From the NCBI GenBank assembly GCA_014802705.1, contig JAAVBR010000007.1:1-37315 (forward strand): DNA of 37,315 bases, read 5' to 3'. A model generated the notes under the pieces. The model was given only the letters and a program-made list of their open reading frames with translations. It was not told where the DNA came from and did no database searches. The first letter of the stretch is position 1. Each line of letters starts with the position of its first letter. Source of the stretch: a bacterium (GTDB lineage Bacteria > Pseudomonadota > Alphaproteobacteria > Rs-D84). Positions 293 to 22,774 of this stretch are shown here, piece by piece. The translations under genes were made by a program, and so were the position numbers.

Positions 293-1012
293 ATGAAACA
301 CATGCGTAAAATTTTATGGGGGACGATGGCGATGCTGATGCTGGCGCCGAGGGTGGCAGCGGCGGCGGCCCACGATACAGCCGATCCCCTGTACTTGGCG
401 GGCGATCGTGACTTTGTGTCGCGGACATCACTGACCTATTGGGACAGCACCCTGCGCCTGGGCCAGGATTTTTCATACGGATTGGGTGGGCGCTTTGTGA
501 TTGGGGGCAATGTCCATTATCAAATCGATTTTGATGGTCACGAAGATGGATTTTCCAATTTTGACCTGGGCGGGATTTATCGATTGGGGCTTGCCGCCGA
601 TAATGAATCCAAGATCATATCCGATTTGTTGTTCGGGATTAAATTCGGCGGATCGTCACATGTGCGTACCCCCGAATATGCCGATACCATTTATTATGCC
701 GGGGTGCGTGTGGGCCGCGAATGGGCGGGGGTAACCCTGGCCGCGACATTGAAAAGCAGTTGGATTTTTGATGACGCGCGCGGTATGGCCTATATCGATT
801 TTGCGCCAGAGGCTTATTTTCGTCTGAATCCCGATTGGCGTGCGGGGGCGGGCGTTACCCTGCGCAAGGCCACCAAACCCCATTACGACCAGGAATGGGC
901 GAACTTTAAATTGGTGCGTCAATATGGTCGGACCCAATATGTCGGCCATGTGGATTACGAATTTGAAAGTGACGAAGTCCAGGTCGGTATCAAAGTCAAT
1001 ATTGTGTTTTGA
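293..1012 (+). CDS. outer-membrane beta-barrel protein with signal peptide
   Basis: SD AGGGGA lies upstream. The N-terminus MKHMRKILWGTMAMLMLAPRVAAAAA is signal-peptide-like. The body has alternating amphipathic strands rich in G/Y/D and ends ...GIKVNIVF. Confidence 0.6.
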   Translation: MKHMRKILWGTMAMLMLAPRVAAAAAHDTADPLYLAGDRDFVSRTSLTYWDSTLRLGQDFSYGLGGRFVIGGNVHYQIDFDGHEDGFSNFDLGGIYRLGLAADNESKIISDLLFGIKFGGSSHVRTPEYADTIYYAGVRVGREWAGVTLAATLKSSWIFDDARGMAYIDFAPEAYFRLNPDWRAGAGVTLRKATKPHYDQEWANFKLVRQYGRTQYVGHVDYEFESDEVQVGIKVNIVF

Positions 1013-2425: not shown

Positions 2426-2791
2426 ATGAAAAATAACGAATTCACCTTGGCGGTGGCAAATCTGGCGGCGGCGGCCATGGCGGCCAATCCCGGCCTGTCC
2501 ATGGCGGATGCGGTGCGCGACGCCACGGAAAACCTGCGCGGGGCCTCCATCAGCCCCCAAAAAATCAAGGATTCGGTCAAACCCGATAAAATCCAGTGTC
2601 TGGAAGACGGCACCTGGCACGTGATGCTGCGCCGCTATATCCGGCGAAAGTTTAATATGAGTCCGGAACAGTACAAGGCCAAATGGGGATTGCCGGATGA
2701 TTATCCGATGGTGGCGCCGACGTATGCGGCGCGCCGGTCAAAAATCGCAAAAAAAACAGGATTGGGTAAAAATGGCAAAAGAAATTCGTAA
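2426..2791 (+). CDS. mucR: Ros/MucR family transcriptional regulator with degenerate zinc-ligand set
   Basis: The C-terminal half IQCLEDG...SPEQYKAKWGLPDDYPMVAPTYAARRSKIAKKTGLG matches the Ros/MucR signature (..YR.KWGLP.DYPMVAP.YA..RS.LAK..GLG). The internal ATG at 2426 is preferred over the 2048 ORF start, which is antisense to rarA. Confidence 0.85.
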   Translation: MKNNEFTLAVANLAAAAMAANPGLSMADAVRDATENLRGASISPQKIKDSVKPDKIQCLEDGTWHVMLRRYIRRKFNMSPEQYKAKWGLPDDYPMVAPTYAARRSKIAKKTGLGKNGKRNS

Positions 2792-4433
2792 CAATAAATA
2801 CCTATCCGGCCTGTATCAGTTCTTGGGATGGGCGATCAAATACGCGACATGGGACAATCCCATTGTGCGTGGCACAGACGCGGCGATCAAGGCGGTTTCG
2901 GCGACGCCCGCGATGCCCCAGGAAACATGGTTTGAACGTCATTCCACGGTTGCGGCGCGTGTGGTTTGGTGGTGCGCATTGTGCGGCGCCCTGTTGAAAG
3001 AGGGGACCATTGATGTCGCCCCCGTCGTGGATGCCATGGGCCATTGGATCACACAGAATAATTTTGAAGATCTGAAATTAAATCCCAAAAATTCCGAACG
3101 CTGGGCGGATGCGGTGGTGGGGATTCATCCCTATGTCTTGGCGCATATTATTTCCAGCGAAGGGTTTATTGAAAAGGCCTATGACGACAATGGGGGCAAT
3201 GGGACGTTGACCCTGGGCAGTGGATTTACCATCAACGATAAAATACATCGTGATTTTGCAAAAAAAATATTGGGCCGCCATGTGGGAAACGGGGCGTCTA
3301 TTACCGTTGCGGAAAATCGGATCTTGGTATCCGAATGGTTAAAACAAAAAATCTATCCCCAAATTCAACAGAATCTGACCCGATCCATCGACAGTCGTCT
3401 GTTTGTGATTTTGGCGGTGGCGGCGTATAACAAAGGGTCCAATACCTATGCCCCTGGCAACAGCGGCCATCCCGTGATCCAGGCCATCAATGACGGCAAA
3501 AGTCCCGACGAAATTGCCGCGACGTATGTGCGGGCCTTTTCGGGAATCCAGGGCACCAAGTGGGGGGGGCTGCCCAACAAATTTGGTTTAAGCGCCCTGT
3601 ATTATCAGGGGGCGGTGCAAGACACAACGATTTTGAATGCCATTGCCGAGGCACCCTATACCCTGGAAAAACATATTCGCCAGAATAATAATCGGCTGGT
3701 GACCTATGACAACAAAACGAATGCGGCGCGGGCCAATGGATTGTATAATCCGGGTAATATTGATTCACTGATGCTGTTGACCAAATACCGCAAGACCCAG
3801 GGAACCGCTCAAGAACCGGTGAAAAATTATTTAACCCCGCATCAATGTGATGTGATTCAACAGGGAAAATTGGCGGCCCATGTGGCGGATTTCCAGGATT
3901 CGATTGTTCATGTCACCCCCCAGAAAATGGATGCGTCGGATGAGTTAAATGCCGCCGGCGAAGAATTTTATTTTGATAAAAAGTATGCCCAGGCGGTTGA
4001 AAAATTCAAAGCGGCCATCCAGAAAAAACCGCAGAATTACATCGCATACAGCAATTTGGCCATTTCATATTACAAAATGGATAAATACGCCGATGGGTTA
4101 AAGGTGGTCCAGGATCTGATCAAATCATCGCACTTTGCGGGCATGCCGGACGACATTCGGGGCTATACCTATTATAATGTGGCGTTGTGTCGGATGGCCC
4201 TGGGGGACAATGCCCAGGATACCACGGCCGCCGCGGAACATTACACATTGGCCCGGGCAAATTTAAAGTTGGCCGAAAAATTCAGCGGCTGTGTGCACGA
4301 AGACATGCGCAAAACGTTGGATGCCAAAATAAATCCGGCGCCGCATATGCGCGCCGCCGCGGCCAAGGTCAAAAGCCAATCGGCCCCCCAAAAAGGCCGG
4401 GCGCCCGTGCGTCCCAAACAAGAGGGCAGATAA
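2772..4433 (+). CDS. membrane-anchored GH24 (T4-lysozyme-like) muramidase domain protein with C-terminal TPR repeats, paralog A
   Basis: SSEGFIEKAYDDNGGNGTLTLGSGFT reproduces the Glu-8/9-Asp-5-Thr spacing of the T4 lysozyme catalytic triad. A hydrophobic segment VVWWCALCGALL is present. The C-terminus is TPR-like (FYFDKKYAQAVEKFKAAIQKKPQNYIAYSNLAISYYKMDKY). The start at 2772 is chosen over 2697. Confidence 0.7.
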   Translation: MAKEIRNNKYLSGLYQFLGWAIKYATWDNPIVRGTDAAIKAVSATPAMPQETWFERHSTVAARVVWWCALCGALLKEGTIDVAPVVDAMGHWITQNNFEDLKLNPKNSERWADAVVGIHPYVLAHIISSEGFIEKAYDDNGGNGTLTLGSGFTINDKIHRDFAKKILGRHVGNGASITVAENRILVSEWLKQKIYPQIQQNLTRSIDSRLFVILAVAAYNKGSNTYAPGNSGHPVIQAINDGKSPDEIAATYVRAFSGIQGTKWGGLPNKFGLSALYYQGAVQDTTILNAIAEAPYTLEKHIRQNNNRLVTYDNKTNAARANGLYNPGNIDSLMLLTKYRKTQGTAQEPVKNYLTPHQCDVIQQGKLAAHVADFQDSIVHVTPQKMDASDELNAAGEEFYFDKKYAQAVEKFKAAIQKKPQNYIAYSNLAISYYKMDKYADGLKVVQDLIKSSHFAGMPDDIRGYTYYNVALCRMALGDNAQDTTAAAEHYTLARANLKLAEKFSGCVHEDMRKTLDAKINPAPHMRAAAAKVKSQSAPQKGRAPVRPKQEGR

Positions 4434-6206
4434 ATGGCACAACGGTTTCAAAAAATTGTCGGCGCGCCCCAGCATACATTTGAACGGGCCCGCAAAAAAA
4501 TAACGGCATGGCATCCCCGCACACCCGTGGGGCATGTGGGGCGCCTGGTCGGGATTTCGGGGACGGGGATATTTGAATTTTTATTGTGGGCGGTCAAATA
4601 CGCCACATTGGATAATCCGATGTTGCGCGATATGGAAGACAAGATACGAAATCTGCAAACCAATTCCATTTGGTGGCGTCATCCCAATTTGTCGGCGCAT
4701 GTGTTGTGGTGGTTTATGTTGGGGGGCGTGGTTTTGTCCGCGTGGCCCCAAAGCGATGAAATGGAAGAGGGAACAGAACCCTTTTATGAGACACACAACA
4801 GCGCCACCGATGTCCCGCCGGTCGCGGAAAAAAAGTTTGCGGGTTTTTGTCTGAATCCCCTGGATCAACAGGCGTGGCGCGCCGATGTGATGGGCGTGCA
4901 TCCCTATGTCTTGGCGCATATTATTTCCAGCGAGGGCTTTATCGAACGGGCCTATGACGACAATGCAGGCAATGGAACGTTGACCCTGGGCAGTGGTTTT
5001 ACCATCGATCACGCGGCGCATCGGGCGTTTGCCCAGCAAATATTGGGCCGCCGGATTGGCAATTGGGCGCGGATTGATGTGGATGAAAACCGTGTGTTGG
5101 TGTCCGAATGGCTGCGCCAGGTGATTTATCCCAATATTCAACAGAATTTAACCCGACCGGTGGATGGGCGTTTGTTTGTGATTTTGGCGGTGGCGGCATA
5201 CAACAAAGGGCACAATATCTATGCCCCCGGCAACAGCGGCTATCCCGTTATCCAGGCCATCAATGCCGGCAAAAGTGTGGATGAAATAGCCAATGCCTAT
5301 GTGCGGGCCTTTGCGGGGCCGCGCGGCACGCGTTGGCCGGGATTGATCAATAAATATGGCGTCTGTGCGTTGTATTACAAGGGTAACATTTCCGATGGGG
5401 CCATCTTGGCCTCGGTGGCAGAGGCACCTTATCGTCTGGAAAAGCATATTCGCCAGAACCGGGGACGGTTGGTCACCTATGACGGGTCGGGCGAAGATGC
5501 CCGCCCCAATGGTGTCATTGATCATAAAAAAATGGATTCCCTGTTGATGATGGTGCCAAAGCACAAGACCAAGGGTACCCTGCAGGATACGGTCGGGACG
5601 TATTTGAACGCGGCACAATGTGATGCGATTTCGCGTGGCGTTTTGGCCGGGGCGGATGCCTGTTTCCATGATTTTATGCCCAAAAAAACGGCGGAAAGAT
5701 TAAGTCGATCGGACGCGTTAAACATTACGGGCGAAGAATTGTATTTTGATAAAAAATACAGCGCCGCCATCAAAAAATTCCAGGCGGCCCTGGATAAAGA
5801 TCCGCGCAATTATATCGCGTACGCCAATATGGTGATTTGTTATTGCAAAATGGGGCGGCCCGAACGGGGATTGGCCGTGATGCAAAACCTGATGGGGACC
5901 GGTCTGTATACCGACATGCCCGGCGATATGCGCGGCGCCATGTATTACGGGGCGGCCCTGTGTCGCGTGGCATTGGGCGACGCCGCCACACGGGATGACG
6001 TGCGCCGCACGCATTATACCGCGGCATTGGAAAATTTAAAGTTGGCCGAAAAATTTAGCGGTGACCCGCACGAGGGGATCCAAAAAGCCGTCCAGGCAAA
6101 GATAAATCCGGCGCCGCAGATGCGCGCCGCCGCGGCCAAGGTCAAAAGTCAGACGCGTGTTCCCACCGCCAAAGGGAACGTGGTGACCAAAAATGAGGGC
6201 AGATAA
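4434..6206 (+). CDS. membrane-anchored GH24 lysozyme-like / TPR protein, paralog B
   Basis: Same architecture as 2772-4433 (SSEGFIERAYDDNAGNGTLTLGSGFT, a TPR tail, and an identical ...NLKLAEKFSG...AKINPAP.MRAAAAKVKSQ end). The ATG directly abuts the upstream TAA. Confidence 0.7.
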   Translation: MAQRFQKIVGAPQHTFERARKKITAWHPRTPVGHVGRLVGISGTGIFEFLLWAVKYATLDNPMLRDMEDKIRNLQTNSIWWRHPNLSAHVLWWFMLGGVVLSAWPQSDEMEEGTEPFYETHNSATDVPPVAEKKFAGFCLNPLDQQAWRADVMGVHPYVLAHIISSEGFIERAYDDNAGNGTLTLGSGFTIDHAAHRAFAQQILGRRIGNWARIDVDENRVLVSEWLRQVIYPNIQQNLTRPVDGRLFVILAVAAYNKGHNIYAPGNSGYPVIQAINAGKSVDEIANAYVRAFAGPRGTRWPGLINKYGVCALYYKGNISDGAILASVAEAPYRLEKHIRQNRGRLVTYDGSGEDARPNGVIDHKKMDSLLMMVPKHKTKGTLQDTVGTYLNAAQCDAISRGVLAGADACFHDFMPKKTAERLSRSDALNITGEELYFDKKYSAAIKKFQAALDKDPRNYIAYANMVICYCKMGRPERGLAVMQNLMGTGLYTDMPGDMRGAMYYGAALCRVALGDAATRDDVRRTHYTAALENLKLAEKFSGDPHEGIQKAVQAKINPAPQMRAAAAKVKSQTRVPTAKGNVVTKNEGR

Positions 6207-6207
6207 C

Positions 6208-8163
6208 ATGCATATTTATATTGATGATCAGGATAAGCGTTGGAACAAATATAAAATCGATTTTGATGGGGTGGCCCGTCGGGCGGCGGATGTCGCCGGC
6301 GCCGCGCCTGAGGCAGAAATATCGATTATCCTGACCGATGATGCGCACATTCATGAACTGAACCGACAATATCGTCAGATTGATCGGCCGACCAATGTGC
6401 TGTCCTTTGAATTGGGGGATCCCCAATTGTTGGGCGACATTTATATATCCTTGGACACGGTCCAGCGCGAGGCCCATGATTTAAATATCCCTGTGGCCGA
6501 TCATACGGCGCATATGGTGGTGCACGGGGTTTTGCACCTGATGGGGTATGATCATATTGATGATGCGGATGCGGTGCGGATGGAAAAATTGGAAACCCAA
6601 ATTTTGGGGGATATGGGAATTAAAAATCCCTATGCGTCGGACGGGGATGTCGTGGCCAGGCGGGGAATGCGCCCATGGGGATGCGCGGCGCTCTATGCAC
6701 TCTGTGGGGCGGTGGCCGTGTTGGGGTTTGCGCCCATGGTTTTTTGGTGGGCGACATGTATCGGCATCGGCGGGGCATATTACCTCTGTGTTCGTGACGG
6801 GGACGCGCCCATTGGATTGGGACGCGGATGGATGCGGGCGTTTCCCTTTGGGGCAATGTACGCCGTGGGGATGTTTTGGTGGATGCTGAATTCGATTTTT
6901 GTGGTACCGGAATTGATGCATCAATTTGCGATTTGGACATTGCCCGCATTGATGGGGATCGCGTTGGCGGGGGGGATTATTTTCGCCGCGCCGTTTGCCG
7001 TTGTGTCTTCTATGCGCCGGAATCCGGCATATACACCGATTTATTTTGCAACCGCCTGGACGTTGGTGTTGTGGTTGCGGGAATGGGTGCTGACCGGATT
7101 TCCATGGAATCCGTTGGCGAACATTACGTTGAATATGCCGTTGATCGCCAATTCCATGTCGCTGTGGGGGGCATTGGGATTGACGTTTGTGGTGGCAGGC
7201 TTGATCGCATCGGGGGTGGAATGGATCCGCACGCGGCGCCGTGATGTCGTGACCACATTTTTGATGTTTGTGGTGGTATTGGCCGCCGGCGCGGTTGCAG
7301 GATATATCAATATACTGCGTGCGGCCGTGGATACCGATAAACCGGCCCCTGTGATTCGTATTGTACAGCCCGCCATGTCCCAATCGCAAAAGATGACGCG
7401 CGATGCGGCGGTGGAAAATCTGAAACGTCTGATGGAACTGGGGTGGGGCGATGATGCCGGGGCGCATCCCGATTTGATTGTGTATCCGGAAACCACCTAT
7501 CCGGCGGTGATGGAGGCTGATGATGATATGCCCATGGCGCGGGCCTTGGGCAAACCGGTGGTGATGGGGACGTTATCCTGGGATGGGCGGCATGTCTATA
7601 ATTCCATGGCGGTGGCGGGAAATGACGGGACGTTAAATCACCTGTATCACAAATCGCATTTGGTGCCGTTTGGGGAATACGCGCCGCTGGGGGGACTGAT
7701 GCCGGCGCCGGGGAATTTAACCCCCGGCACAGGGCCGGCCCTGATCACGCTGGATCTGGGGGGGCGTGCCTTTACCTTTGCGCCCGCCATTTGTTACGAG
7801 ATTATTTTTACAGATTCCCTGGTGCGTTCCGCGGCGCCCATCGACGCGGTGATCAATATGACCAATGACACATGGTTTGGCCGCACCCCCGGCACGTACC
7901 AGCACTTGGATATGGTGCGGCGCTATGCGATTGAATCAGGGCTGCCCATTGTGCGGGCCAATTATTCGGGGATCAGTGCCCTGGTCAACAGTGCGGGTGC
8001 CGTCACGGCCCGGATTCCCATCGGGGCCACAGGGATCTTGGACGGCACGGTCGGGGGCGCGCACCAAACGCCATATCGATGGATCGGGCGTGACGGATGG
8101 ATGATTCTTATTTTGATCTTTGCCCTGGGGGCCGTGGCCGTGCGCCGGCGGTTCGGAAAATAA
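6208..8163 (+). CDS. lnt: single ORF joining YbeY (rRNA maturation endoribonuclease) to apolipoprotein N-acyltransferase Lnt
   Basis: Residues about 1-150 carry the YbeY motif HGVLHLMGYDH and end ...GIKNPY. From M at 6667 the ORF is Lnt-like: multi-TM N-terminus, then a CN-hydrolase domain (DLIVYPET, HKSHLVPFGEY, ICYE). No stop separates the two parts. GAGGG lies upstream of ATG 6208, and the alternative start 6193 overlaps the upstream gene. Confidence 0.8.
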   Translation: MHIYIDDQDKRWNKYKIDFDGVARRAADVAGAAPEAEISIILTDDAHIHELNRQYRQIDRPTNVLSFELGDPQLLGDIYISLDTVQREAHDLNIPVADHTAHMVVHGVLHLMGYDHIDDADAVRMEKLETQILGDMGIKNPYASDGDVVARRGMRPWGCAALYALCGAVAVLGFAPMVFWWATCIGIGGAYYLCVRDGDAPIGLGRGWMRAFPFGAMYAVGMFWWMLNSIFVVPELMHQFAIWTLPALMGIALAGGIIFAAPFAVVSSMRRNPAYTPIYFATAWTLVLWLREWVLTGFPWNPLANITLNMPLIANSMSLWGALGLTFVVAGLIASGVEWIRTRRRDVVTTFLMFVVVLAAGAVAGYINILRAAVDTDKPAPVIRIVQPAMSQSQKMTRDAAVENLKRLMELGWGDDAGAHPDLIVYPETTYPAVMEADDDMPMARALGKPVVMGTLSWDGRHVYNSMAVAGNDGTLNHLYHKSHLVPFGEYAPLGGLMPAPGNLTPGTGPALITLDLGGRAFTFAPAICYEIIFTDSLVRSAAPIDAVINMTNDTWFGRTPGTYQHLDMVRRYAIESGLPIVRANYSGISALVNSAGAVTARIPIGATGILDGTVGGAHQTPYRWIGRDGWMILILIFALGAVAVRRRFGK

Positions 8164-11771: not shown

Positions 11772-12985
11772 CATTTAACGATATTTTAAAAGAATCCTGG
11801 TTTTCGATCAGCGGTAATAAAATGCGGTCATTTTTGACCGTGTTGGGGATTATCATCGGGGTGATGGCGGTGGTGATTATGGTGGCCGTGGGCGAAACGG
11901 TCCAAAAACAGATCAGTGATCAGTTTTCGTCGCTGGGGACCAATACCATTATGATCCGTGCCGGCGCCGCCCAGACCGGGGGGGTGCGTACGGGTAATCG
12001 CCAGACATTGACCCTGGACGATGCGGAATTTATCGGCAAATTGCCCGATGTGATGGCGGTGTCCCCGGTTCAAAACAGCGCCGCCCAGGCCATTTATGGT
12101 AATAAAAATTGGGCGACATCCATGGTGGGGGTGTGGCCGGCCTATACCGTGGTCCAGAATATCGAAATAGAACAGGGGGCTTTTTTCGATCAATCGGCGG
12201 TGCGCAACGCGTCGACCTATGCCGTAATTGGGCCCACCACGGCCGAAGAATTGGGATTGCCCGATAACCCCATCGGCCAGGTGGTGCGGATTCAAAATAC
12301 GCCCTTTGTGATTGTGGGGGTGACCAAAGCCAAGGGCGATTCGGCCATGGGGTCCCAGGACGACATGATCATCATTCCGATCACAACATTGAAAAAGCGT
12401 CTGCAGGGTTCGCGCTTTCCCAACGCGGTCAGTATGATTGCCTTGAAACTCTATCCGGATGCGGATAATAATTTGGTGATTGAACAGATTACGGCGTTGC
12501 TGCGCCAGCGGCATAAATTAAAAGATGCCGATGCCGACGATTTTCAAATCATGGACATGAAACAGGTCATGGAAACCATGAACACGGTGACGGGGTATAT
12601 GAAACTGTTGCTGATTGCGATTGCGGGCGTGTCGCTGTTGGTGGGGGCGATCGGGATTATGAACATGATGCTGGTGTCGGTGGCGGAACGCACGCGTGAA
12701 ATTGGCATTCGCAAGGCCATTGGCGCACGTGAACGGCATATTATTATTCAATTTTTATCCGAATCGATTTTTATCTCCTTTATCGGATCCATGGTGGGAT
12801 TGATGTTGGGGCTGGGCCTGGCCCAGGGGGTGGGGCGATTGATCCTGCATTACAATGTGCCGTTTTCGGCATGGCCGGTGGTGTTATCCATCAGTGTGGC
12901 GGTGATTGTCGGCCTGGCATCCGGGGTGATGCCCGCGTACAAGGCGGCGAAATTAAACCCGATCGACAGCCTGCGCTATGAATAA
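11768..12985 (+). CDS. MacB/FtsX-type ABC transporter permease
   Basis: N-terminal TM segment, a large periplasmic domain and a C-terminal FtsX 3-TM bundle (ER.REIGIRKAIGA....I..QFL.ES). ATGA overlap with the ATPase gene. Confidence 0.88.
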   Translation: MTFNDILKESWFSISGNKMRSFLTVLGIIIGVMAVVIMVAVGETVQKQISDQFSSLGTNTIMIRAGAAQTGGVRTGNRQTLTLDDAEFIGKLPDVMAVSPVQNSAAQAIYGNKNWATSMVGVWPAYTVVQNIEIEQGAFFDQSAVRNASTYAVIGPTTAEELGLPDNPIGQVVRIQNTPFVIVGVTKAKGDSAMGSQDDMIIIPITTLKKRLQGSRFPNAVSMIALKLYPDADNNLVIEQITALLRQRHKLKDADADDFQIMDMKQVMETMNTVTGYMKLLLIAIAGVSLLVGAIGIMNMMLVSVAERTREIGIRKAIGARERHIIIQFLSESIFISFIGSMVGLMLGLGLAQGVGRLILHYNVPFSAWPVVLSISVAVIVGLASGVMPAYKAAKLNPIDSLRYE

Positions 12986-13013
12986 AAAAATCCCGGGGAT
13001 TCCCGGGATTTTT
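12986..13013 (+). terminator. rho-independent terminator after the permease gene (also the left end of cassette copy 1)
   Basis: AATCCCGG-GGATTC-CCGGGATT followed by TTT and flanked by an A-run. Confidence 0.7.
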
Positions 13014-13017
13014 CATG

Positions 13018-13046
13018 TTGCGCGAAACGGCGCAATCGGTTATAAT
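13018..13046 (+). promoter_or_regulatory. sigma70-type promoter of cassette copy 1
   Basis: TTGCGC, 17-nt spacer, TATAAT. The -35 is part of the inverted repeat TTGCGC-GAAACG-GCGCAA. Predicted TSS is near 13053. Confidence 0.6.
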
Positions 13047-13155
13047 CCGTGGGGTAGAGGGCGAAAATACTATGCCTAATCCAAAGGGACGTTTGCATAC
13101 GACAATAATCCCAAAATAAAAATCCCCAATTTCCGCACTTTTTCCTCCTGATTTT

Positions 13156-13647
13156 ATGCCTAATCCAAACGTCGGTTTGAATCCGGCCGTGGCCGCCGAA
13201 TGTCCAGCAAAGGTATGCGTGTCAGGCGAGCTGGGAATAATAGACGATTTGGATGGTACCGTTGATTTAGATAGCAAGGCGGCCAATTGCGCAACCACCA
13301 AGATGACATGTTACGGAGAGTCTGCTGAGGGATTTACTGGGGAGTCGACTGGTTTGGAATCGTGTGTGACATGTCTGGATGGATATGTCAAAGAAGAACG
13401 GACAGTTCCGTTTCAAGATCAACGGGGCAACGAATGTACGGTCACATATTACACCTGTGTCAAAGAGACAAAATGCCCCCAGGGACAATATAAACAGGGG
13501 ACGACCTGTGTGGCCTGTCCGTCATCGGGAACGACCGATGCAGCCGGCATGACGGCCGTGACGCAATGTTATCTTGCCGCCGGGACAGCCTTTTCCGATG
13601 CCAGCGGGGCAGGCGTTTACGCCGCCAAATGTCCCTGGGTGAATTAA
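13156..13647 (+). CDS. Cys-rich protein family member 1 (MPNPNVGL N-terminus, ephrin-receptor-like CxxCPxG C-terminal module)
   Basis: The C-terminus KCPQGQYKQGTTCVACPSSGTTDAAGMTAVTQCYLAAGTAFSDASGAGVYAAKCPWVN matches the GCC2/GCC3 (Ephrin_rec_like) pattern. No signal peptide and no SD are seen. Confidence 0.7.
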   Translation: MPNPNVGLNPAVAAECPAKVCVSGELGIIDDLDGTVDLDSKAANCATTKMTCYGESAEGFTGESTGLESCVTCLDGYVKEERTVPFQDQRGNECTVTYYTCVKETKCPQGQYKQGTTCVACPSSGTTDAAGMTAVTQCYLAAGTAFSDASGAGVYAAKCPWVN

Positions 13648-13649
13648 AA

Positions 13650-13678
13650 TTGACATTTTTCGTCCCGCGCGTTATGAT
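13650..13678 (+). promoter_or_regulatory. canonical sigma70 promoter upstream of the Thr-rich mini-ORF and thrS
   Basis: TTGACA, 17-nt spacer, TATGAT. Confidence 0.6.
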
Positions 13679-13685
13679 GCAAGGC

Positions 13686-13742
13686 ATGAAGTATTTATAT
13701 ATGACTTTGACGACAACCACGACGACCCCTTTGGGGGTGTAA
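13686..13742 (+). CDS. candidate Thr-rich leader peptide (MKYLYMTLTTTTTTPLGV)
   Basis: An 18-codon ORF with six consecutive Thr codons (ACG ACA ACC ACG ACG ACC, 13710-13727), 78 nt upstream of thrS. An alternative ATG lies at 13701. It is too short for the ORF track. Confidence 0.5.
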   Translation: MKYLYMTLTTTTTTPLGV

Positions 13743-13749
13743 TTTCTGT

Positions 13750-13778
13750 TTGCGGTTTTTCCCGCGTATGCTTATAAT
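13750..13778 (+). promoter_or_regulatory. possible proximal thrS promoter
   Basis: TTGCGG, 17-nt spacer, TATAAT, 42 nt upstream of the thrS ATG. This is a motif match only. Confidence 0.35.
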
Positions 13779-13819
13779 CATCAATTGGAATAAAAATAAA
13801 AAACAAAGGGACTTTTGTT

Positions 13820-15553
13820 ATGTCTTACGAAATTGAAACCATTCGGCATTCGCTGGCGCATGTGATGGCGGCGGCGATTCAAAAATTACACCCCGACGTC
13901 AAATTTGCGGGTGGCCCGGCCATTGAAAACGGATTTTATTACGATTTCGATACCGATTATCGCTTTTCCGAAGAAGACTTTGACGCCATTGAAAAGGAAA
14001 TGCGCGCCTTGATCAAATCCGACGGCGCGTTTGTCCAACGCAACGTCACCGCGGCCGAGGCCAAGGAGATTTTTGCCAACCAGCCGTACAAAATGGAATG
14101 GTTAAATGAATATGATGCGGCCGGCGACGCCCTGTCGATCTATACATTCCGCGACTTTACCGACCTGTGCCGGGGGCCGCATGTGGCGTCATCCAAAGAC
14201 CTGCCGCGCGACGGGTTTAAAATCCGCAGTGTGGCGGGCGCCTATTGGAAGGGCGACGCCAAAAATAAAATGTTGCAGCGTATCTATGTGGATGCCTTTG
14301 CGTCCAAGGAAGATTTGGACGCGCATCTGAAAATGATGGAAGAGGCGGCCGCCCGCGACAACCGAAAACTGGGGCGCGATATGGATCTGTTCCATTTTGA
14401 ACCGGAATATGCGCCCGGGGCGGTGTTCTGGCATGACAAGGGGTATCGTATTTATCGGCGCCTGATCGATTATATCCGTATGCGCCAGGAACGCGCCGGT
14501 TATCTGGAAATTTCGACCCCGTCGGTGATGGATCGGTCCCTGTGGGAAAAATCGGGCCACTGGGCGAAATATGGGGAACATAACTATTCGGGCAAGACCC
14601 AGGATGGCAAAACGTTCTGTGTGAAACCGATGTCGTGCCCGGGCGGCATGTTGGTGTTCGGCCAGGGAACGCGTTCGTACAAGGATCTGCCGCTGTATCT
14701 GTCGGAATTCGGCAAGGTCAATCGGTACGAGGCGGCCGGGGGCCTGGCCGGGCTGATGCGTGTGCGTGAATTCACCCAGGACGACGCGCATATCTTCTGT
14801 ACCGAAGATCAGTTTGAAACCGAAATCGTCAAAATCTTGTCTTTTGTAAAAGATATTTATGCGAAATTCGGCTTTGATCGGGTGTGGATGAAATTGGCCA
14901 CCCGCAAGGAATCGGAATTCCGAATCGGGTCGGATGAAATCTGGGACAAGGCCGAAGAGGGACTGCGTCATGCGCTGGAGGCCAATAATATTGAATTCGA
15001 AGTGGCGACCGGGGACGCCGCCTTCTATGGACCCAAAATCGATATTTATCTGAAAGATTCGATTGGCCGCACCTGGCAATGCGGGACGGTTCAATTGGAT
15101 ATGAATCTGCCGGAACGCTTTGATTTGTCGTATATCGGCGAAGACGGGGAAAAGCATCGTCCGATTATGTTGCATCGCGCGTTGCTGGGGTCGATTGAAC
15201 GCTTTATGGGCGTATTGTTGGAATCGACCGGCGGGCATTTGCCGCTGTGGTTATCGCCGATGCCGGTGGTGGTCACCCCCATTTCGGAAAAGCAGCGCGA
15301 CTATGCCATCGCCGTGGCGGATGCGTTGACGGCCGCGGGCGTCCGGTGCACGACCGATCTGCGCGATGAAAAGGTCAATTACAAAGTCCGTGAATTGTCC
15401 GTCGCCAAAACCCCCATTATCGCGGTGGTGGGCGACAAAGAAATGGCCGACCAGACTGTGACCCTGCGCCGTTTGGGTGTGGAACAGCAGGAAACCGTTT
15501 CCTTGCAAGACTTTGTGGAACAAATGCGCGCCGCGGTGCAATTGCCGGCGTAA
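13820..15553 (+). CDS. thrS: threonine--tRNA ligase lacking the N-terminal TGS domain
   Basis: It starts at the editing-domain motif (IRHSLAHVMAAAIQKL..GP.IENGFYYDF). CRGPH is present, as are class II motifs (FCVKPMSCPG, RVREFTQDDAHIF, GDAAFYGPKID) and an anticodon-binding domain. Length is 577 aa, against about 640 aa for E. coli ThrRS. Confidence 0.93.
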   Translation: MSYEIETIRHSLAHVMAAAIQKLHPDVKFAGGPAIENGFYYDFDTDYRFSEEDFDAIEKEMRALIKSDGAFVQRNVTAAEAKEIFANQPYKMEWLNEYDAAGDALSIYTFRDFTDLCRGPHVASSKDLPRDGFKIRSVAGAYWKGDAKNKMLQRIYVDAFASKEDLDAHLKMMEEAAARDNRKLGRDMDLFHFEPEYAPGAVFWHDKGYRIYRRLIDYIRMRQERAGYLEISTPSVMDRSLWEKSGHWAKYGEHNYSGKTQDGKTFCVKPMSCPGGMLVFGQGTRSYKDLPLYLSEFGKVNRYEAAGGLAGLMRVREFTQDDAHIFCTEDQFETEIVKILSFVKDIYAKFGFDRVWMKLATRKESEFRIGSDEIWDKAEEGLRHALEANNIEFEVATGDAAFYGPKIDIYLKDSIGRTWQCGTVQLDMNLPERFDLSYIGEDGEKHRPIMLHRALLGSIERFMGVLLESTGGHLPLWLSPMPVVVTPISEKQRDYAIAVADALTAAGVRCTTDLRDEKVNYKVRELSVAKTPIIAVVGDKEMADQTVTLRRLGVEQQETVSLQDFVEQMRAAVQLPA

Positions 15554-21199: not shown

Positions 21200-22774
21200 A
21201 TGAGACAAGGTTTATCAGCGGATTTAATTGCACGTGTCTTGGGGGCGGCGCCAAAGTATACGTTGGCGGAATTAGAGGCAAAATTTCCCCCACGCAATTT
21301 GCCCGATGGGGCATTCGTGACACGTTTCGCGCCGAGTCCCACGGGGATGATGCACTTGGGCGGCCTCTACGGGGCGTTGATTGATTGCAAATTGGCGCAA
21401 ACGACAAACGGTGTCTTTATGCTGCGGATCGAAGATACCGACACCAAGCGCGAGGTGGCCGACGCCGTCGATATTATCAAAAAATCGCTGGATAAATTTG
21501 GCTTGGCATACAACAACGATCCGGTGTACGGCCCGTATTATCAATCGATGCGGCGCGATATTTATCATTCGGTGGCGGCGGATTTATTGGCGCGGGGCTT
21601 GGCCTATCCGTGTTTTTTAACCGGGGACGATATGGAACGTATCCGGGATAATCAAAAGGCGGCGGGTTTTCCCACCGGGATATACGGCGAATTTGCGCGG
21701 GATCGCGATTTGACCGACGACGAAATCATGGCGCACCTGGATGCCGGGGACACGCCGACCATCCGTCTGTATTCGACCGGCAATCCCGAAAATAAAATAT
21801 TCTGTAAAGACGTGGTGCGTGGATCCATCGGGTTCCCGGAAAATAACGAAGATCTGGTCTTGATCAAATCCAATGACGGTCTGCCGACGTATCACTTTGC
21901 GCACTTGGTGGACGACCACTTTATGCGCACGACGCATGTGGTGCGCGGCGAAGAATGGTTGCCGTCGTTCCCGCTGCATGTGCAACTGTTCCGCATGATG
22001 GGGTGGAACGCGCCGAATTATATTCATACGTCGACCATTGATAAAATTGATGATGAGACGGGCAAGCAACGCAAATTATCCAAGCGCAAAGATCCCGAGG
22101 CCAACGTGGATTTCTTTATCCGCGATGGGTGGCCGGTGGATGCCGTGATGGAATATCTGTTTAATATCGCGGCGTCGGGATATGAAGAGGCGAAAACCAA
22201 AGGCGCCGTGAAAACCATTTGGGAATATGACATGCGACCCAAAAAGATTCCGATGTCGGGCGCGCTGTTTGATATGAAGAAACTGGAATGGTGGGCGCGT
22301 GAATTTATCGCGACGCTGCCGGTCGACGCATTGGTGGATCGCGTTGTTGCCTGGGCAAACGAATATAGCGACGAACATCAGAAAATGCAGGTGGCGGACA
22401 CAGCGTATCTCTCCGCGGTGCTGGGCATTGAACGCGATAACCCCAAACGCATCCGCAAAGACTTTATCACATGGCGCCAGACGCTGGAAACCGTGGCATT
22501 TTTCTGGGACGACCTGTATATACCGAACACCGAATTTGAATACAATCGGGACGCGTTACGGGAATTTTTGGCCGTCTATGATGCGGGGGATGATAAAGAC
22601 GCATGGTGGAATAAAGTCGTGGCGATTGCCGAAAAGTTGGGCATTAAAAATGGCGACGTGGCGATGAACCTGCGCGTGGCATTATCGGGCCGCACCAACA
22701 CACCGGATTTGTATTCGATGATGACGGTGATGGGCGCGGCGCGCGTTCAACAAAGGATAAAGAATGTTCTTTAA
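21200..22774 (+). CDS. gltX: glutamate--tRNA ligase (class I, GluRS-type)
   Basis: HIGH-type TRFAPSPTGMMHLGG, RIEDTD, VVRGEEWLPSFPLHVQL, and KMSKS-type KLSKRK. A C-terminal helical domain is present. Confidence 0.85.
   Translation: MRQGLSADLIARVLGAAPKYTLAELEAKFPPRNLPDGAFVTRFAPSPTGMMHLGGLYGALIDCKLAQTTNGVFMLRIEDTDTKREVADAVDIIKKSLDKFGLAYNNDPVYGPYYQSMRRDIYHSVAADLLARGLAYPCFLTGDDMERIRDNQKAAGFPTGIYGEFARDRDLTDDEIMAHLDAGDTPTIRLYSTGNPENKIFCKDVVRGSIGFPENNEDLVLIKSNDGLPTYHFAHLVDDHFMRTTHVVRGEEWLPSFPLHVQLFRMMGWNAPNYIHTSTIDKIDDETGKQRKLSKRKDPEANVDFFIRDGWPVDAVMEYLFNIAASGYEEAKTKGAVKTIWEYDMRPKKIPMSGALFDMKKLEWWAREFIATLPVDALVDRVVAWANEYSDEHQKMQVADTAYLSAVLGIERDNPKRIRKDFITWRQTLETVAFFWDDLYIPNTEFEYNRDALREFLAVYDAGDDKDAWWNKVVAIAEKLGIKNGDVAMNLRVALSGRTNTPDLYSMMTVMGAARVQQRIKNVL

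Follow-up and report, generated by a model that had tools for sequence, protein, structure and literature searches.

A conserved threonine-codon leader ORF precedes thrS in Candidatus Enterousia and probably reports the supply of charged tRNA-Thr

Introduction

The gene for threonyl-tRNA synthetase (thrS) in Candidatus Enterousia is preceded by a compact module, consisting of a promoter (P1), a short leader ORF rich in Thr codons, a hairpin (hairpin 1), a U-rich linker, a second hairpin (hairpin 2) and a second promoter (P2), which was found upstream of thrS in all 49 of the sequences that we compared from this clade. Judged from its sequence, the module most likely contains a genuine Thr-tRNA-sensing leader peptide for a synthetase gene, and we consider it probable, if far from certain, that this leader peptide acts in cis to report the supply of charged tRNA-Thr to thrS.

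The known controls of thrS are the T-box of Bacillus and the tRNA-mimic translational operator of E. coli, both of which serve the same gene as the Enterousia leader and presumably respond to the same signal, i.e. the state of tRNA-Thr. In pheM-pheST of E. coli, an ORF rich in the cognate codon lies before a synthetase gene and the position of the ribosome on it is the sensor, which is read out through alternative hairpins and a strong terminator with a U-run. To our knowledge, pheST is the only case in which amino-acid-specific control of synthetase genes by a leader peptide is firmly established. A different arrangement is found in the pyrBI and pyrE leaders of E. coli, where the translated ORF extends into one terminator hairpin without any antiterminator, and termination is prevented when a ribosome follows the polymerase closely.

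The source of the DNA analyzed here (the window, i.e. the whole stretch of 37,315 nt) is Candidatus Enterousia, an alphaproteobacterium of the gut that has a genome of less than 1 Mb and lacks amino-acid biosynthesis (PMC12306168).

Results

Conservation of the module upstream of thrS

We compared the window with 48 loci from related species for which upstream DNA was available, giving 49 sequences, of which 47 are distinct. The features of the window are listed in Table 1. The thrS product contains the tRNA_SAD, class II core and anticodon-binding domains and was aligned to residues 68-630 of E. coli ThrRS (1qf6); across the Enterousia clade compared, ThrRS identity is 74-89%. Between the leader stop codon and the thrS ATG there are 77 nt, and the UTR upstream of thrS is almost free of G.

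Table 1. Features of the thrS leader region in the window
Feature	Position	Strand	Description
Promoter P1	13650..13678	+	-35 TTGACA 13650-13655, 17-nt spacer, -10 TATGAT 13673-13678
Leader ORF	13686..13742	+	18 codons plus stop, encodes MKYLYMTLTTTTTTPLGV; ATG 13686, TAA 13740-13742; no Shine-Dalgarno
Thr codon run	13704..13727	+	ACT, TTG, then ACG ACA ACC ACG ACG ACC; proposed sensor of charged tRNA-Thr
Hairpin 1	13725..13738	+	ACCCC-TTTG-GGGGT; formed within the last codons of the ORF; the stop codon comes next
Stop codon and U-rich linker	13739..13750	+	TAA (13740-13742) and AATTTCTGTT(T); tail of hairpin 1 and upstream flank of P2
Promoter P2	13750..13778	+	-35 TTGCGG 13750-13755, 17-nt spacer, -10 TATAAT 13773-13778; wraps hairpin 2
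Hairpin 2	13751..13766	+	TGCGG-TTTTTC-CCGCG; inside P2 (last -35 bases and part of the spacer)
A-rich 5' UTR of thrS	13779..13819	+	Shine-Dalgarno AAGGGA (13806-13811); no conserved structure
thrS, threonyl-tRNA synthetase	13820..15553	+	577 aa; ATG at 13820; without the N-terminal TGS (N1) domain

A run of the form (ACN)6 occurs once in the window, counting both strands, and any such run appeared in just 1 of 300 mononucleotide shuffles of the window. The leader is also the sole intergenic short ORF in the window with at least four identical residues in a row. The recurrence of the module at all 48 related loci settles the question of chance. A covariance model comprising hairpin 1, the linker and hairpin 2 gave one match at each Enterousia locus (48 matches) and one in the window, and had no match in 30 more distant loci. 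Neither the window nor ~330 kb of flanking Enterousia sequence yielded a further leader ORF containing an amino-acid run. Elsewhere in the window, gltX (21200-22774) has an upstream gap of just 46 nt.

The leader ORF and its Thr codons

An ORF of 17-23 codons was found in 49/49 sequences, and each has between 4 and 8 Thr codons among the last ten codons up to hairpin 1; the short cognate-codon-rich ORF upstream of the gene that is expected of a classical attenuator is thus present in 49/49. In the window six consecutive Thr codons occupy 13710-13727 and the ACT at 13704 is a seventh. Numbering the last codon of the run as position 0, Thr is encoded at positions 0 and -1 in all 49 sequences, at -2 in 47, at -3 in 42, at -4 in 38 and at -5 in 35. 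These codons are constant at their first two bases, whereas any of the four bases can occupy the third, and codon use in the run therefore varies synonymously (ACA 61%, ACT 26%, ACG 9%, ACC 5%). The reading frame from ATG to stop is preserved despite changes in ORF length. As the Thr codons vary synonymously, the leader ORF is under selection as coding sequence. The N-terminal half of the predicted peptide is consistently hydrophobic and Phe-rich, and its sequence varies widely. The ORF is probably translated, as suggested by i) the synonymous variation of the Thr codons, ii) the preserved frame, and iii) a promoter that is placed for a leaderless ATG.

Promoters P1 and P2

P1 scores 11/12 and is the best promoter-like site within 12500-15000; it recurs as TTGAC[AT] or TTGATT, a 17-nt spacer and TAnnAT in 47/49 loci. 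The leader ATG starts 7 nt past the P1 -10 in the window, and the corresponding gap is 6-10 nt in 40/49 sequences, the rest being misassignments by the automatic promoter or start-codon picker. As the -10 ends 6-10 nt before the ATG, the leader mRNA is expected to be leaderless or nearly so. P2 takes the form TTGCNN-17-TATAAT, AATAAT or TAAAAT in 43/49 sequences, with an 18-nt spacer in the others, and this spacing is kept even though the loop of hairpin 2, which lies within it, ranges from 3 to 9 nt. In 45/49 sequences the stop codon and the P2 -35 are separated by 6-8 nt, and nearly all loci have 38-55 nt between the end of the P2 -10 and the thrS ATG. The comparison shows both of these putative promoters to be conserved, and P2 is likely to fire and to serve as a Thr-independent promoter for thrS.

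Hairpins 1 and 2

Hairpin 1 is built from the codons ACC-CCN-NNG-GGG-GUN, i.e. the last Thr codon, a Pro codon, the third base of the next codon, a Gly codon and the GU of a Val codon, and its five pairs are invariant across the 47 distinct sequences. The last Thr codon is ACC in 49/49, versus 5% elsewhere in the run, and the Gly codon is GGG in 49/49, versus 20% of the Gly codons in thrS; in addition, the third base of the penultimate Thr codon is a purine in 49/49 and pairs with the U of the Val codon. By these measures of codon choice hairpin 1 is constrained at the nucleotide level, and the conserved C-terminus of the peptide (TPxGV) is fully accounted for by the bases of the hairpin.

With 5 pairs, hairpin 1 has a mean stability of about -9 kcal/mol. 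It was flagged in a terminator consensus scan, with a tail that mostly has at most 3 consecutive U; the 12 nt after the stem contain 5-7 U, and the U-rich tail begins 3-5 nt downstream of the stem. Terminators of this genus have 7-11-bp stems and a U-rich tail that follows directly, with at least 6 U in 8 nt, and by that standard hairpin 1 is a poor, i.e. weak, terminator. We infer that it acts on RNA polymerase.

Hairpin 2 shows a different pattern of conservation: 95.7% of its cells are paired, and two of its pairs show compensatory changes (GC/AU for one; GC/CG/AU/UA plus wobbles for the other). Its covariation score is 0.161 compared with 0.073 in shuffles, and none of 500 shuffles reached 0.161. 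The G.U wobbles are compatible with the + strand only; as a + strand RNA element, hairpin 2 is part of P1 read-through transcripts. It was ruled out as a terminator, having no U-rich tail, and is unlikely to be a protein-binding palindrome, as its arms covary, its loop varies from 3 to 9 nt and its G.U wobbles fit one strand only. Overall, the pattern of conservation shows the ORF, the Thr run and both hairpins to be under selection.

A preliminary description of this DNA had picked out P1, the leader ORF with its six-Thr run and the second promoter-like motif (TTGCGG-17-TATAAT), and had proposed a cognate-codon leader tied to thrS; all of these hold, with every coordinate confirmed, and the run and two hairpins are kept in 49/49 sequences. 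It had also listed three hairpins, each of which is present as described, and the comparison separates them, in that the first (13726-13736) is invariant, the second (13752-13765) covaries and the third, AACAAA/TTTGTT at 13802-13819, is unconserved. Two features had escaped that description, namely the leaderless start implied by the short distance between the P1 -10 and the ATG, and the construction of hairpin 1 from the final codons of the ORF.

Alternative structures in the leader

The preliminary description had likened the locus to textbook attenuation in the sense of thrL, hisL and pheM, and had seen no clear terminator/antiterminator pair by eye. The second point agrees with our tests of alternative structures, which likewise found none; the first is not supported, as there is no antiterminator, hairpin 1 is a poor terminator and hairpin 2 has no U-tail. 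The pairing tests compared cognate with non-cognate combinations of segments. For the classical 1:2 / 2:3 / 3:4 scheme, the 3' arm and linker of hairpin 1 were paired with hairpin 2, the UTR and the thrS start, and in none of these was the cognate pairing favoured. Pairing of this arm and linker with the hairpin 2 region as an antiterminator gave -5.86 kcal/mol for cognate versus -6.59 kcal/mol for non-cognate combinations, so that such pairing is, if anything, avoided. Among all the other segment pairs, 1/36 passed z < -3 (z = -3.2), which is not significant given 36 comparisons. A long-range helix closing the leader, from the 5' part of the ORF to downstream sequence, was also rejected for Enterousia, being borderline in 1/36 pairs and giving p = 0.65 in a whole-leader test; the whole leader did not fold better than shuffled sequence (z = +0.75). 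Apart from hairpins 1 and 2, no lineage-specific pairing of segments was found in the Enterousia leaders. With no antiterminator alternative, textbook competition between hairpins cannot be the mechanism.

The lack of an intrinsic terminator/antiterminator pair would suit Rho-dependent attenuation of the tna type, in which, once the ribosome has terminated normally at the leader stop codon, Rho would load onto the naked leader RNA and halt the polymerase ahead of thrS translation, and a ribosome stalled on the run would hide the loading site. The Thr run is C-rich and G-free, the UTR is nearly G-free, and the response would be in the expected direction. However, the untranslated stretch is just ~77 nt long and is A/U-rich rather than C-rich, and the model gives the two GC hairpins no role; we regard it as very unlikely.

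Rfam gave nothing at gathering score over the window, Thr_leader (RF00506) and T-box included, and no match at E <= 10 in 13600-13860. In addition to the lack of an Rfam match, the leader, at ~135 nt, is too short and too unstructured for a T-box riboswitch. An operator of the E. coli thrS type was rejected as well: the loops are variable (3-9 nt) with no conserved NGU, the hairpins have no anticodon-like loops, unlike those of the E. coli operator, and the thrS initiation region has no conserved structure. The Enterousia hairpins, at ~55-95 nt upstream of the thrS start, are also too distant to compete with ribosome binding as in E. coli.

Access to the thrS ribosome-binding site

Sequestration of the thrS ribosome-binding site was not found in leader-to-SD pairing (p = 0.40), in the whole leader (p = 0.65) or as a local hairpin. 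In the first of these, the Phe codons UUUCUUU before the run were considered as an anti-SD and rejected, since the cognate value was -6.55 kcal/mol and the non-cognate value -6.48 kcal/mol; a local hairpin in the SD region was unconserved (cognate -1.35 versus non-cognate -1.30 kcal/mol, p = 0.36). In some species UUUCUUU can pair with the thrS SD, e.g. over 11 bp in locus L015. Translational attenuation of the erm / cat type was rejected, as there is no sequestering structure over the thrS ribosome-binding site. For the SD, the predicted accessibility is 0.45 when transcription starts at P1 and 0.52 when it starts at P2.

These values bear on an erm-like effect on the stability of the P1 mRNA, whereby a ribosome held on the Thr run would protect it from decay that depends on the 5' end, so that the mRNA would persist longer when Thr-tRNA is scarce, with the hairpins acting as barriers to decay or insulating the folding. 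As the Thr codons begin ~8 codons from the 5' end, a stalled ribosome would be expected to cover most of the 5' segment; moreover, such an effect would be independent of any race between ribosome and polymerase, would respond in the expected direction, and would act on P1 transcripts that, to judge from hairpin 2, extend downstream. It would nevertheless leave unexplained the invariance of hairpin 1, its abutment to the run and the adjacent stop codon, and neither the lack of sequestration of the thrS ribosome-binding site nor the near-equal SD accessibility of the two transcripts favours it. We consider it an improbable account of the leader.

Related leaders in other bacteria

In a scan of metagenomes, the combination of a Thr run and this hairpin turned up in the leaders of thrA and thrB-like genes in other bacteria, and before thrS in Saccharimonadales. 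The thrA and thrB-like leaders (L138, L094, L088 and L115) precede aspartokinase / homoserine-kinase-like genes, and in these the Thr run likewise leads into an ACC-CCN-NNG-GGG hairpin that contains the stop codon or is closely followed by it. One of them, L138, has a clear antiterminator that starts 5 nt past the stop codon, together with a competing terminator. The thrL leader (Thr_leader, RF00506) likewise has a Thr codon run in a leader ORF, although its Rfam model fails to match the window; thrL and the metagenomic thrA/thrB-like leaders serve biosynthetic genes, whereas the Enterousia leader precedes thrS.

In the Saccharimonadales thrS leaders (L126, L142 and L201-L205), too, an ORF with a Thr run ends in a CCCC/GGGG hairpin with a U-rich tail before a TGS-less thrS in a reduced-genome host. 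They differ from the Enterousia leaders in that i) the stop codon is in the hairpin loop in most of them, rather than directly after the hairpin, ii) a long-range helix, unsupported in Enterousia, joins the 5' half of the ORF to a segment just upstream of the thrS SD, and iii) a counterpart of hairpin 2 or P2 is not evident. In more distant Saccharimonadales leaders a T-box was suggested by a GGUGGAACC motif and a terminator, and was unconfirmed by Rfam.

The recurrence of the hairpin also bears on whether the ORF is an independent small gene, encoding a micropeptide or an sRNA that ends at hairpin 1 or 2, which neighbours thrS and in which the Thr run is a property of the peptide. In favour of this, the unit includes a strong promoter as well as a hairpin trailed by U-rich sequence, the peptide is regularly hydrophobic and rich in Phe over its N-terminal half, and in Sinorhizobium a leader RNA and its peptide are reported to act in their own right (PMC6614838). 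However, the bases of the hairpin fully explain the C-terminus, the N-terminal sequence is highly variable, hairpin 2 indicates that transcripts run past hairpin 1, and a Thr run with the same hairpin recurs before thrS, thrA and thrB-like genes in unrelated bacteria. An independent small gene is therefore highly improbable.

Discussion

We propose that P1 would direct a transcription start no more than 3 nt from the A of the leader ATG, so that a 70S ribosome could load once the 5' end has emerged from RNA polymerase. The ribosome would then read 4-8 Thr codons that lead straight into hairpin 1; as the 5' arm of hairpin 1 consists of the last Thr and the Pro codons, the position of the ribosome would decide whether hairpin 1 folds. 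Three situations can be envisaged: the ribosome is stalled in the Thr run, it moves in step with the polymerase, or it has completed translation at the stop codon past hairpin 1. Hairpin 1 and its U-rich tail may be sensed by the polymerase as a pause or weak termination signal, 6-8 nt upstream of P2, and the fraction of P1 transcripts that pass hairpin 2 into thrS would in this way be set by Thr-tRNA, with P2 providing a Thr-independent floor for an essential gene.

The direction of the response is less certain. We lean towards more thrS when Thr-tRNA is scarce, on the grounds of physiology and by analogy with pheST and the T-box control of thrS. The geometry alone, i.e. a terminator-like hairpin without an antiterminator, more naturally fits less read-through when the ribosome lags. 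The footprints of the ribosome and RNA polymerase, on which a kinetic argument can be based, are established figures: a ribosome tightly coupled to a polymerase that stands at the hairpin 1 tail could have advanced no further than the Thr run. Hairpin 1 would therefore be suppressed as long as the ribosome stays in step with the polymerase and could fold when the ribosome lags, an outcome opposite to the expected logic.

This geometry is the basis for a translation-coupled read-through like that of pyrBI, with inverted logic, in which only a close ribosome suppresses hairpin 1 as a terminator. Fast decoding of Thr codons would let P1 transcripts reach thrS and slow decoding would end them before P2, so that the contribution of P1 to synthetase levels would be limited to conditions of ample Thr-tRNA and rapid translation, with P2 setting the minimum. 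The anatomy of the leader is indeed of the pyrBI type, as the ORF runs through the single terminator-like hairpin 1 with the stop codon directly after and no antiterminator; a leaderless mRNA would allow the earliest possible loading of a ribosome, the known footprints would place the A site of a coupled ribosome within the Thr run while the polymerase stands at the hairpin 1 tail, and a conserved internal promoter that guarantees a floor suits the design. However, inverted logic would amount to positive feedback on an essential enzyme, with low ThrRS leading to low Thr-tRNA and hence still less thrS; the characterised amino-acid-specific controls of synthetases (pheST attenuation and T-boxes) run the opposite way; and the same hairpin module precedes Thr biosynthetic genes, which a shortage must induce. 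We therefore consider inverted logic unlikely. A further difference is that pyrBI and pyrE sense UTP via polymerase pausing, whereas the Enterousia leader would sense an amino acid via a codon run.

As a leader peptide that reports charged tRNA-Thr, the Enterousia ORF resembles pheM in being rich in the cognate codon and lying directly before its own synthetase gene. Unlike pheM, it has a leaderless start and lacks an antiterminator, and it combines one invariant hairpin on the end of the ORF with a further, independent hairpin and an internal promoter. It is possible, although we hold this only tentatively, that Enterousia and, independently, Saccharimonadales use a minimal leader-peptide switch of an undescribed kind, with a leaderless or near-leaderless ORF, a codon run fused to a single GC hairpin and no antiterminator. 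Its read-out would be non-classical, e.g. ribosome-gated pausing by the internal promoter, and the second, promoter-embedded hairpin would act on polymerases that come from upstream. If this is true, the switch is a recurrent solution in host-dependent bacteria with reduced genomes, in a role that T-boxes fill elsewhere.

The Thr-codon leader is kept throughout an uncultured, amino-acid-auxotrophic gut clade and recurs in Saccharimonadales, which suggests that on at least two occasions thrS has come under a control that senses tRNA charging through the ribosome. The layout offers a compact, well-defined test case for a non-textbook read-out of ribosome position, and a handle on gene regulation in organisms that have so far not been grown.

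We found no Thr-run leader for thrS described in the literature apart from a prediction in Streptomyces lividans, where a leaderless thrL upstream of thrS was proposed from the transcriptome of that single organism (PMC8079986). The S. lividans thrL shares with the Enterousia leader its leaderless start, its 18 codons, its position upstream of thrS, the residues T-T-P-G and one hairpin without a clear U-run, but it has two Thr codons only, compared with 4-8 in Enterousia, where the leader is conserved in about 50 species. Homology of the two leaders is unlikely, and their resemblance looks convergent.

Conservation of a Thr-codon leader upstream of thrS

The preliminary description had placed a Thr-codon leader peptide with its own promoter ahead of thrS, and all of the elements that it listed were found in the window where it had put them. 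The (ACN)6 run occurs once in the 37-kb window and arose in 1 of 300 shuffled windows; among the intergenic short ORFs of the window, only the leader ORF contains a run of at least four identical residues.

Features of the thrS locus, of other genes in the window and of comparison loci (L-numbers, loci retrieved from genomes or metagenomes)
Feature	Position	Strand	Description
P1 promoter	13650-13678	+	TTGACA-17-TATGAT; score 11/12
Leader ORF	ATG 13686 to TAA 13742	+	encodes MKYLYMTLTTTTTTPLGV
Thr run	13710-13727	+	six consecutive Thr codons
thrS	13820-15553 (ATG at 13820)	+	threonyl-tRNA synthetase (ThrRS), 577 aa
First TPR ORF	2697-4433		578 aa
Second TPR ORF	4434-6206		590 aa
YbeY/LNT ORF	6193-8163		656 aa
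Cys-rich protein gene	13156-13647		163 aa
Glutamyl-tRNA synthetase-type gene	21200-22774		46-nt upstream gap
L138 leader	3850-4100	+	
Saccharimonadales thrS leaders	L126 930-1040; L142 1950-2060; L201-L205 about 590-700		
More distant Saccharimonadales leaders	L206, L207, L208, about 450-700		
ARAGORN 'tRNA' call	L208 309-399		91 nt, ACC at anticodon position

The nearest relatives of the window ThrRS (74-89% identity) come from animal and human guts, in MAGs called Candidatus Enterousia or 'Alphaproteobacteria bacterium'. Genomes of the order Rs-D84 group are smaller than about 1 Mb and lack amino-acid biosynthesis (PMC12306168). A scan with one genome per species gave 50 loci of the Enterousia clade, 48 of which include upstream DNA, and 30 loci (L051-L080, other gut Alphaproteobacteria) with ThrRS about 60% identical. 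Each of the 48 clade loci with upstream DNA has a leader ORF that follows the pattern M-(hydrophobic, Phe-rich)-T(4-8)-P-x-G-V-stop, and its distance from thrS is the same throughout. The preliminary description had named conservation of the Thr run in orthologous leaders as a check, and the run is present in all 49 sequences (the 48 loci plus the window): counting back from the last Thr, positions 0 and -1 are Thr in 49/49, -2 in 47/49, -3 in 42/49, -4 in 38/49 and -5 in 35/49. The codons themselves vary (ACA 61%, ACT 26%, ACG 9%, ACC 5%), and this synonymous variation is the mark of selection acting on codons that are translated. On this comparative evidence the Thr-leader module is real and strongly conserved, and the earlier core idea, that of a Thr-sensing leader for thrS, has good support.

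The N-terminal TGS (N1) domain is missing from the window ThrRS, whose alignment to E. coli ThrRS covers residues 68-630 of the latter. The ∼60% identical ThrRSs keep an N-terminal extension; in these 30 loci no leader was found upstream of thrS, and the preceding gene closely adjoins it. Domain loss and leader gain therefore coincide in the Enterousia clade, and Candidatus Saccharimonadales shows the same combination.

Two promoters and two hairpins

By consensus scoring, P1 outranks every other promoter-like site of the 2.5 kb around it, and it is conserved as TTGAC[AT] or TTGATT, 17 nt of spacer and TAnnAT. Across loci the leader ATG lies only 6-10 nt past the -10 element and has no Shine-Dalgarno (SD) sequence, whereas thrS has a normal one, so the leader mRNA is probably leaderless or nearly so. 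A second promoter, P2, lies 38-55 nt upstream of thrS and reads TTGCNN-17-TATAAT, AATAAT or TAAAAT in 43/49 sequences, the remainder having an 18-nt spacer.

Hairpin 1 (A-CCCC/GGGG-U) is invariant among 47 distinct sequences. Its bases come from the last Thr codon, a Pro codon (CCN), the final G of the codon after it, a GGG Gly codon and the GU of a Val codon, and it overlaps the end of the Thr run. The last Thr codon is ACC in 49/49 sequences, as against 5% elsewhere in the run, and the Gly codon is GGG in 49/49, as against 20% of the Gly codons in thrS; the third base of the penultimate Thr codon, which faces the U of Val, is always a purine. These base requirements explain the conserved C-terminus of the peptide at the level of RNA. 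The stop codon follows hairpin 1 directly in 44/49 sequences and one codon later in 5/49, after which a U-rich linker leads to the next element, 6-8 nt past the stop codon in 45/49. Hairpin 1 has a stability of about -9 kcal/mol and in most sequences a tail with no more than three consecutive U; the terminators of upstream genes at the same loci have 7-11-bp stems and directly adjoining U-rich tails with 6 or more U per 8 nt.

Hairpin 2 lies within P2 and pairs U-G-C-N-N with N-N-G-C-R, with 95.7% of cells paired in a covariance-model alignment. One compensatory pair is GC in 39 sequences and AU in 3, and another is GC in 19, CG in 11, AU in 3 and UA in 2, plus wobbles. Its covariation score of 0.161 (0.073 in shuffles) was reached by 0/500 shuffles and fell far lower when the partner was slid by 1-3 columns. 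An independent test gave a mean of 4.25 contiguous pairs for cognate sequences against 3.73 for non-cognate ones (p < 0.0002). The G.U wobbles fit the + strand only, so hairpin 2 is an RNA structure of P1 transcripts that extend past hairpin 1. The spacing of P2 is maintained while the hairpin 2 loop ranges from 3 to 9 nt, which points to a DNA-level constraint, i.e. a real promoter. Comparison of the 49 sequences shows selection on the leader ORF, its Thr run, the two hairpins and the two promoters.

In L002, L004, L019, L030, L036 and other Enterousia loci, the P1 -35 element shares bases with the U-tract of the upstream gene's terminator, e.g. CCCCTTGATTTTTTTT, 60-110 nt ahead of the leader ATG, and hairpin 1, the U-rich linker and P2 mirror this tight packing of terminator and promoter. 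In the window, no canonical terminator was found between the Cys-rich protein gene and P1. The spacers of P1 (TTTTTCGTCCCGCGCGT, 13656-13672) and P2 (TTTTTCCCGCGTATGCT, 13756-13772) are alike in the window, which may reflect local duplication or conversion; the likeness was not seen in other species.

Absence of an antiterminator

We compared pairing energies of cognate and non-cognate segments, the latter taken from different species, which detects co-evolving helices. Cognate pairing was not favored between the leader ORF and the thrS SD (p = 0.40), between the 5' ORF and all downstream sequence (p = 0.65), or between the hairpin 1 3' arm plus linker and the UTR or start region. A helix between the 3' arm of hairpin 1 and hairpin 2, tried as a classical antiterminator, was weaker in cognate combinations (-5.86 vs -6.59 kcal/mol) and was rejected. 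The textbook attenuation mechanism raised in the preliminary description is not supported, and a hairpin proposed there to cover the thrS SD is not conserved, the thrS start region being A-rich and unstructured. Hairpin 2 has no U-tail, folding of the whole leader was no better than that of shuffled sequence, and Rfam gave no match at gathering score in the window and none at E <= 10 in the leader region.

Lacking an antiterminator, the Enterousia leader was rejected as a classical attenuator and, on the defining test of each class, as a T-box, an E. coli thrS operator and an erm/cat-type control. Its closest counterpart in function is pheM-pheST, a cognate-codon leader for a synthetase, and in anatomy the terminator-only coupled attenuators. 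A thrS leader peptide, MKRVRPFLETTPGFVPAR, has been predicted from the transcriptome of Streptomyces lividans; it is leaderless, with two Thr codons and then a hairpin without a U-run (PMC8079986). We found no other mention in the literature of leader peptides for thrS.

Proposed working of the leader and direction of its response

We propose that the leader ORF would be translated from a leaderless mRNA, with the progress of the ribosome along the Thr run reporting charged tRNA-Thr and its position governing whether hairpin 1 folds. This hairpin, together with the U-rich tail, would then act as a pause or weak terminator for polymerase just before P2, making the P1 share of thrS mRNA dependent on Thr-tRNA, with P2 supplying a floor.

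By established footprints, about 12 nt lie under a ribosome on the 3' side of the first A-site base, and about 30 nt separate its P site from the polymerase active site. With polymerase at the tail of hairpin 1, a coupled ribosome would have reached the Thr run at most; one keeping pace would block hairpin 1, and one held at the first Thr codon would leave it free. As there is no antiterminator to invert the signal, Thr shortage would give less read-through, as in pyrBI. However, physiology points to the opposite direction, as do, by analogy, the control of pheST, the T-box control of thrS and the presence of the hairpin module before Thr biosynthetic genes. Two other read-outs of the stalled ribosome are possible, i.e. 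protection of the P1 mRNA or occlusion of a Rho loading site.

Related Thr leaders in other loci

A metagenome scan for four Thr codons followed by ACCCC-NNN-GGGG gave three kinds of match besides Enterousia. Leaders of aspartokinase genes end in TPxGV-stop in L138 and L094 and have the stop codon within the hairpin loop in L088 and its relatives, and gut-sample leaders ending ...TTTTTTPVGV-stop lie upstream of a homoserine-kinase-like gene. The Thr-run-plus-ACC-CCN-NNG-GGG hairpin ending, often in the form TPxGV-stop, was observed in L138, L094, L088, L115 and L099, which are aspartokinase or homoserine-kinase-like leaders of other bacteria. In L138 the hairpin is followed, 5 nt past the stop codon, by an antiterminator in competition with a good terminator; here the hairpin next to the codon run comes in addition, and the outcome turns on whether the antiterminator lies under a ribosome sitting on the stop codon. 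Enterousia hairpin 2, which starts at the footprint edge of a ribosome on the stop codon, resembles the L138 antiterminator by position but, unlike it, has no competing terminator. A hairpin set against the Thr codons seems to be a building block that recurs among Thr leaders.

The third kind of match consists of thrS leaders of Saccharimonadales (L126, L142), whose ThrRSs are 38-42% identical to that of the window. Seven such leaders retain both the Thr ORF and the hairpin, in most with the stop codon in the loop, and in addition a long-range helix pairs the 5' half of the ORF with sequence directly before the thrS SD; the helix sequences differ between lineages, but the pairing is kept. In more distant Saccharimonadales (L206-L208) a longer leader of ∼200 nt takes the place of the ORF; it contains a GGUGGAACC motif, and a canonical terminator adjoins the thrS SD. 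This leader looks T-box-like; the Rfam T-box model gave no match to it even at E <= 1. ARAGORN calls a 'tRNA' in L208.

Other genes in the window

The glutamyl-tRNA synthetase-type gene, a second synthetase gene, has no leader ORF, so the leader is not general to synthetase genes of this genome fragment. The Cys-rich protein encoded just upstream of P1 has no Pfam match. The two TPR-repeat ORFs are tandem paralogs with nearly identical C-terminal ends (MRAAAAKVKSQ...), and the first also has a lysozyme-like domain. A single ORF combines YbeY endoribonuclease and apolipoprotein N-acyltransferase (LNT_N and CN_hydrolase) domains, and represents either a fusion or an in-frame joining of two genes.
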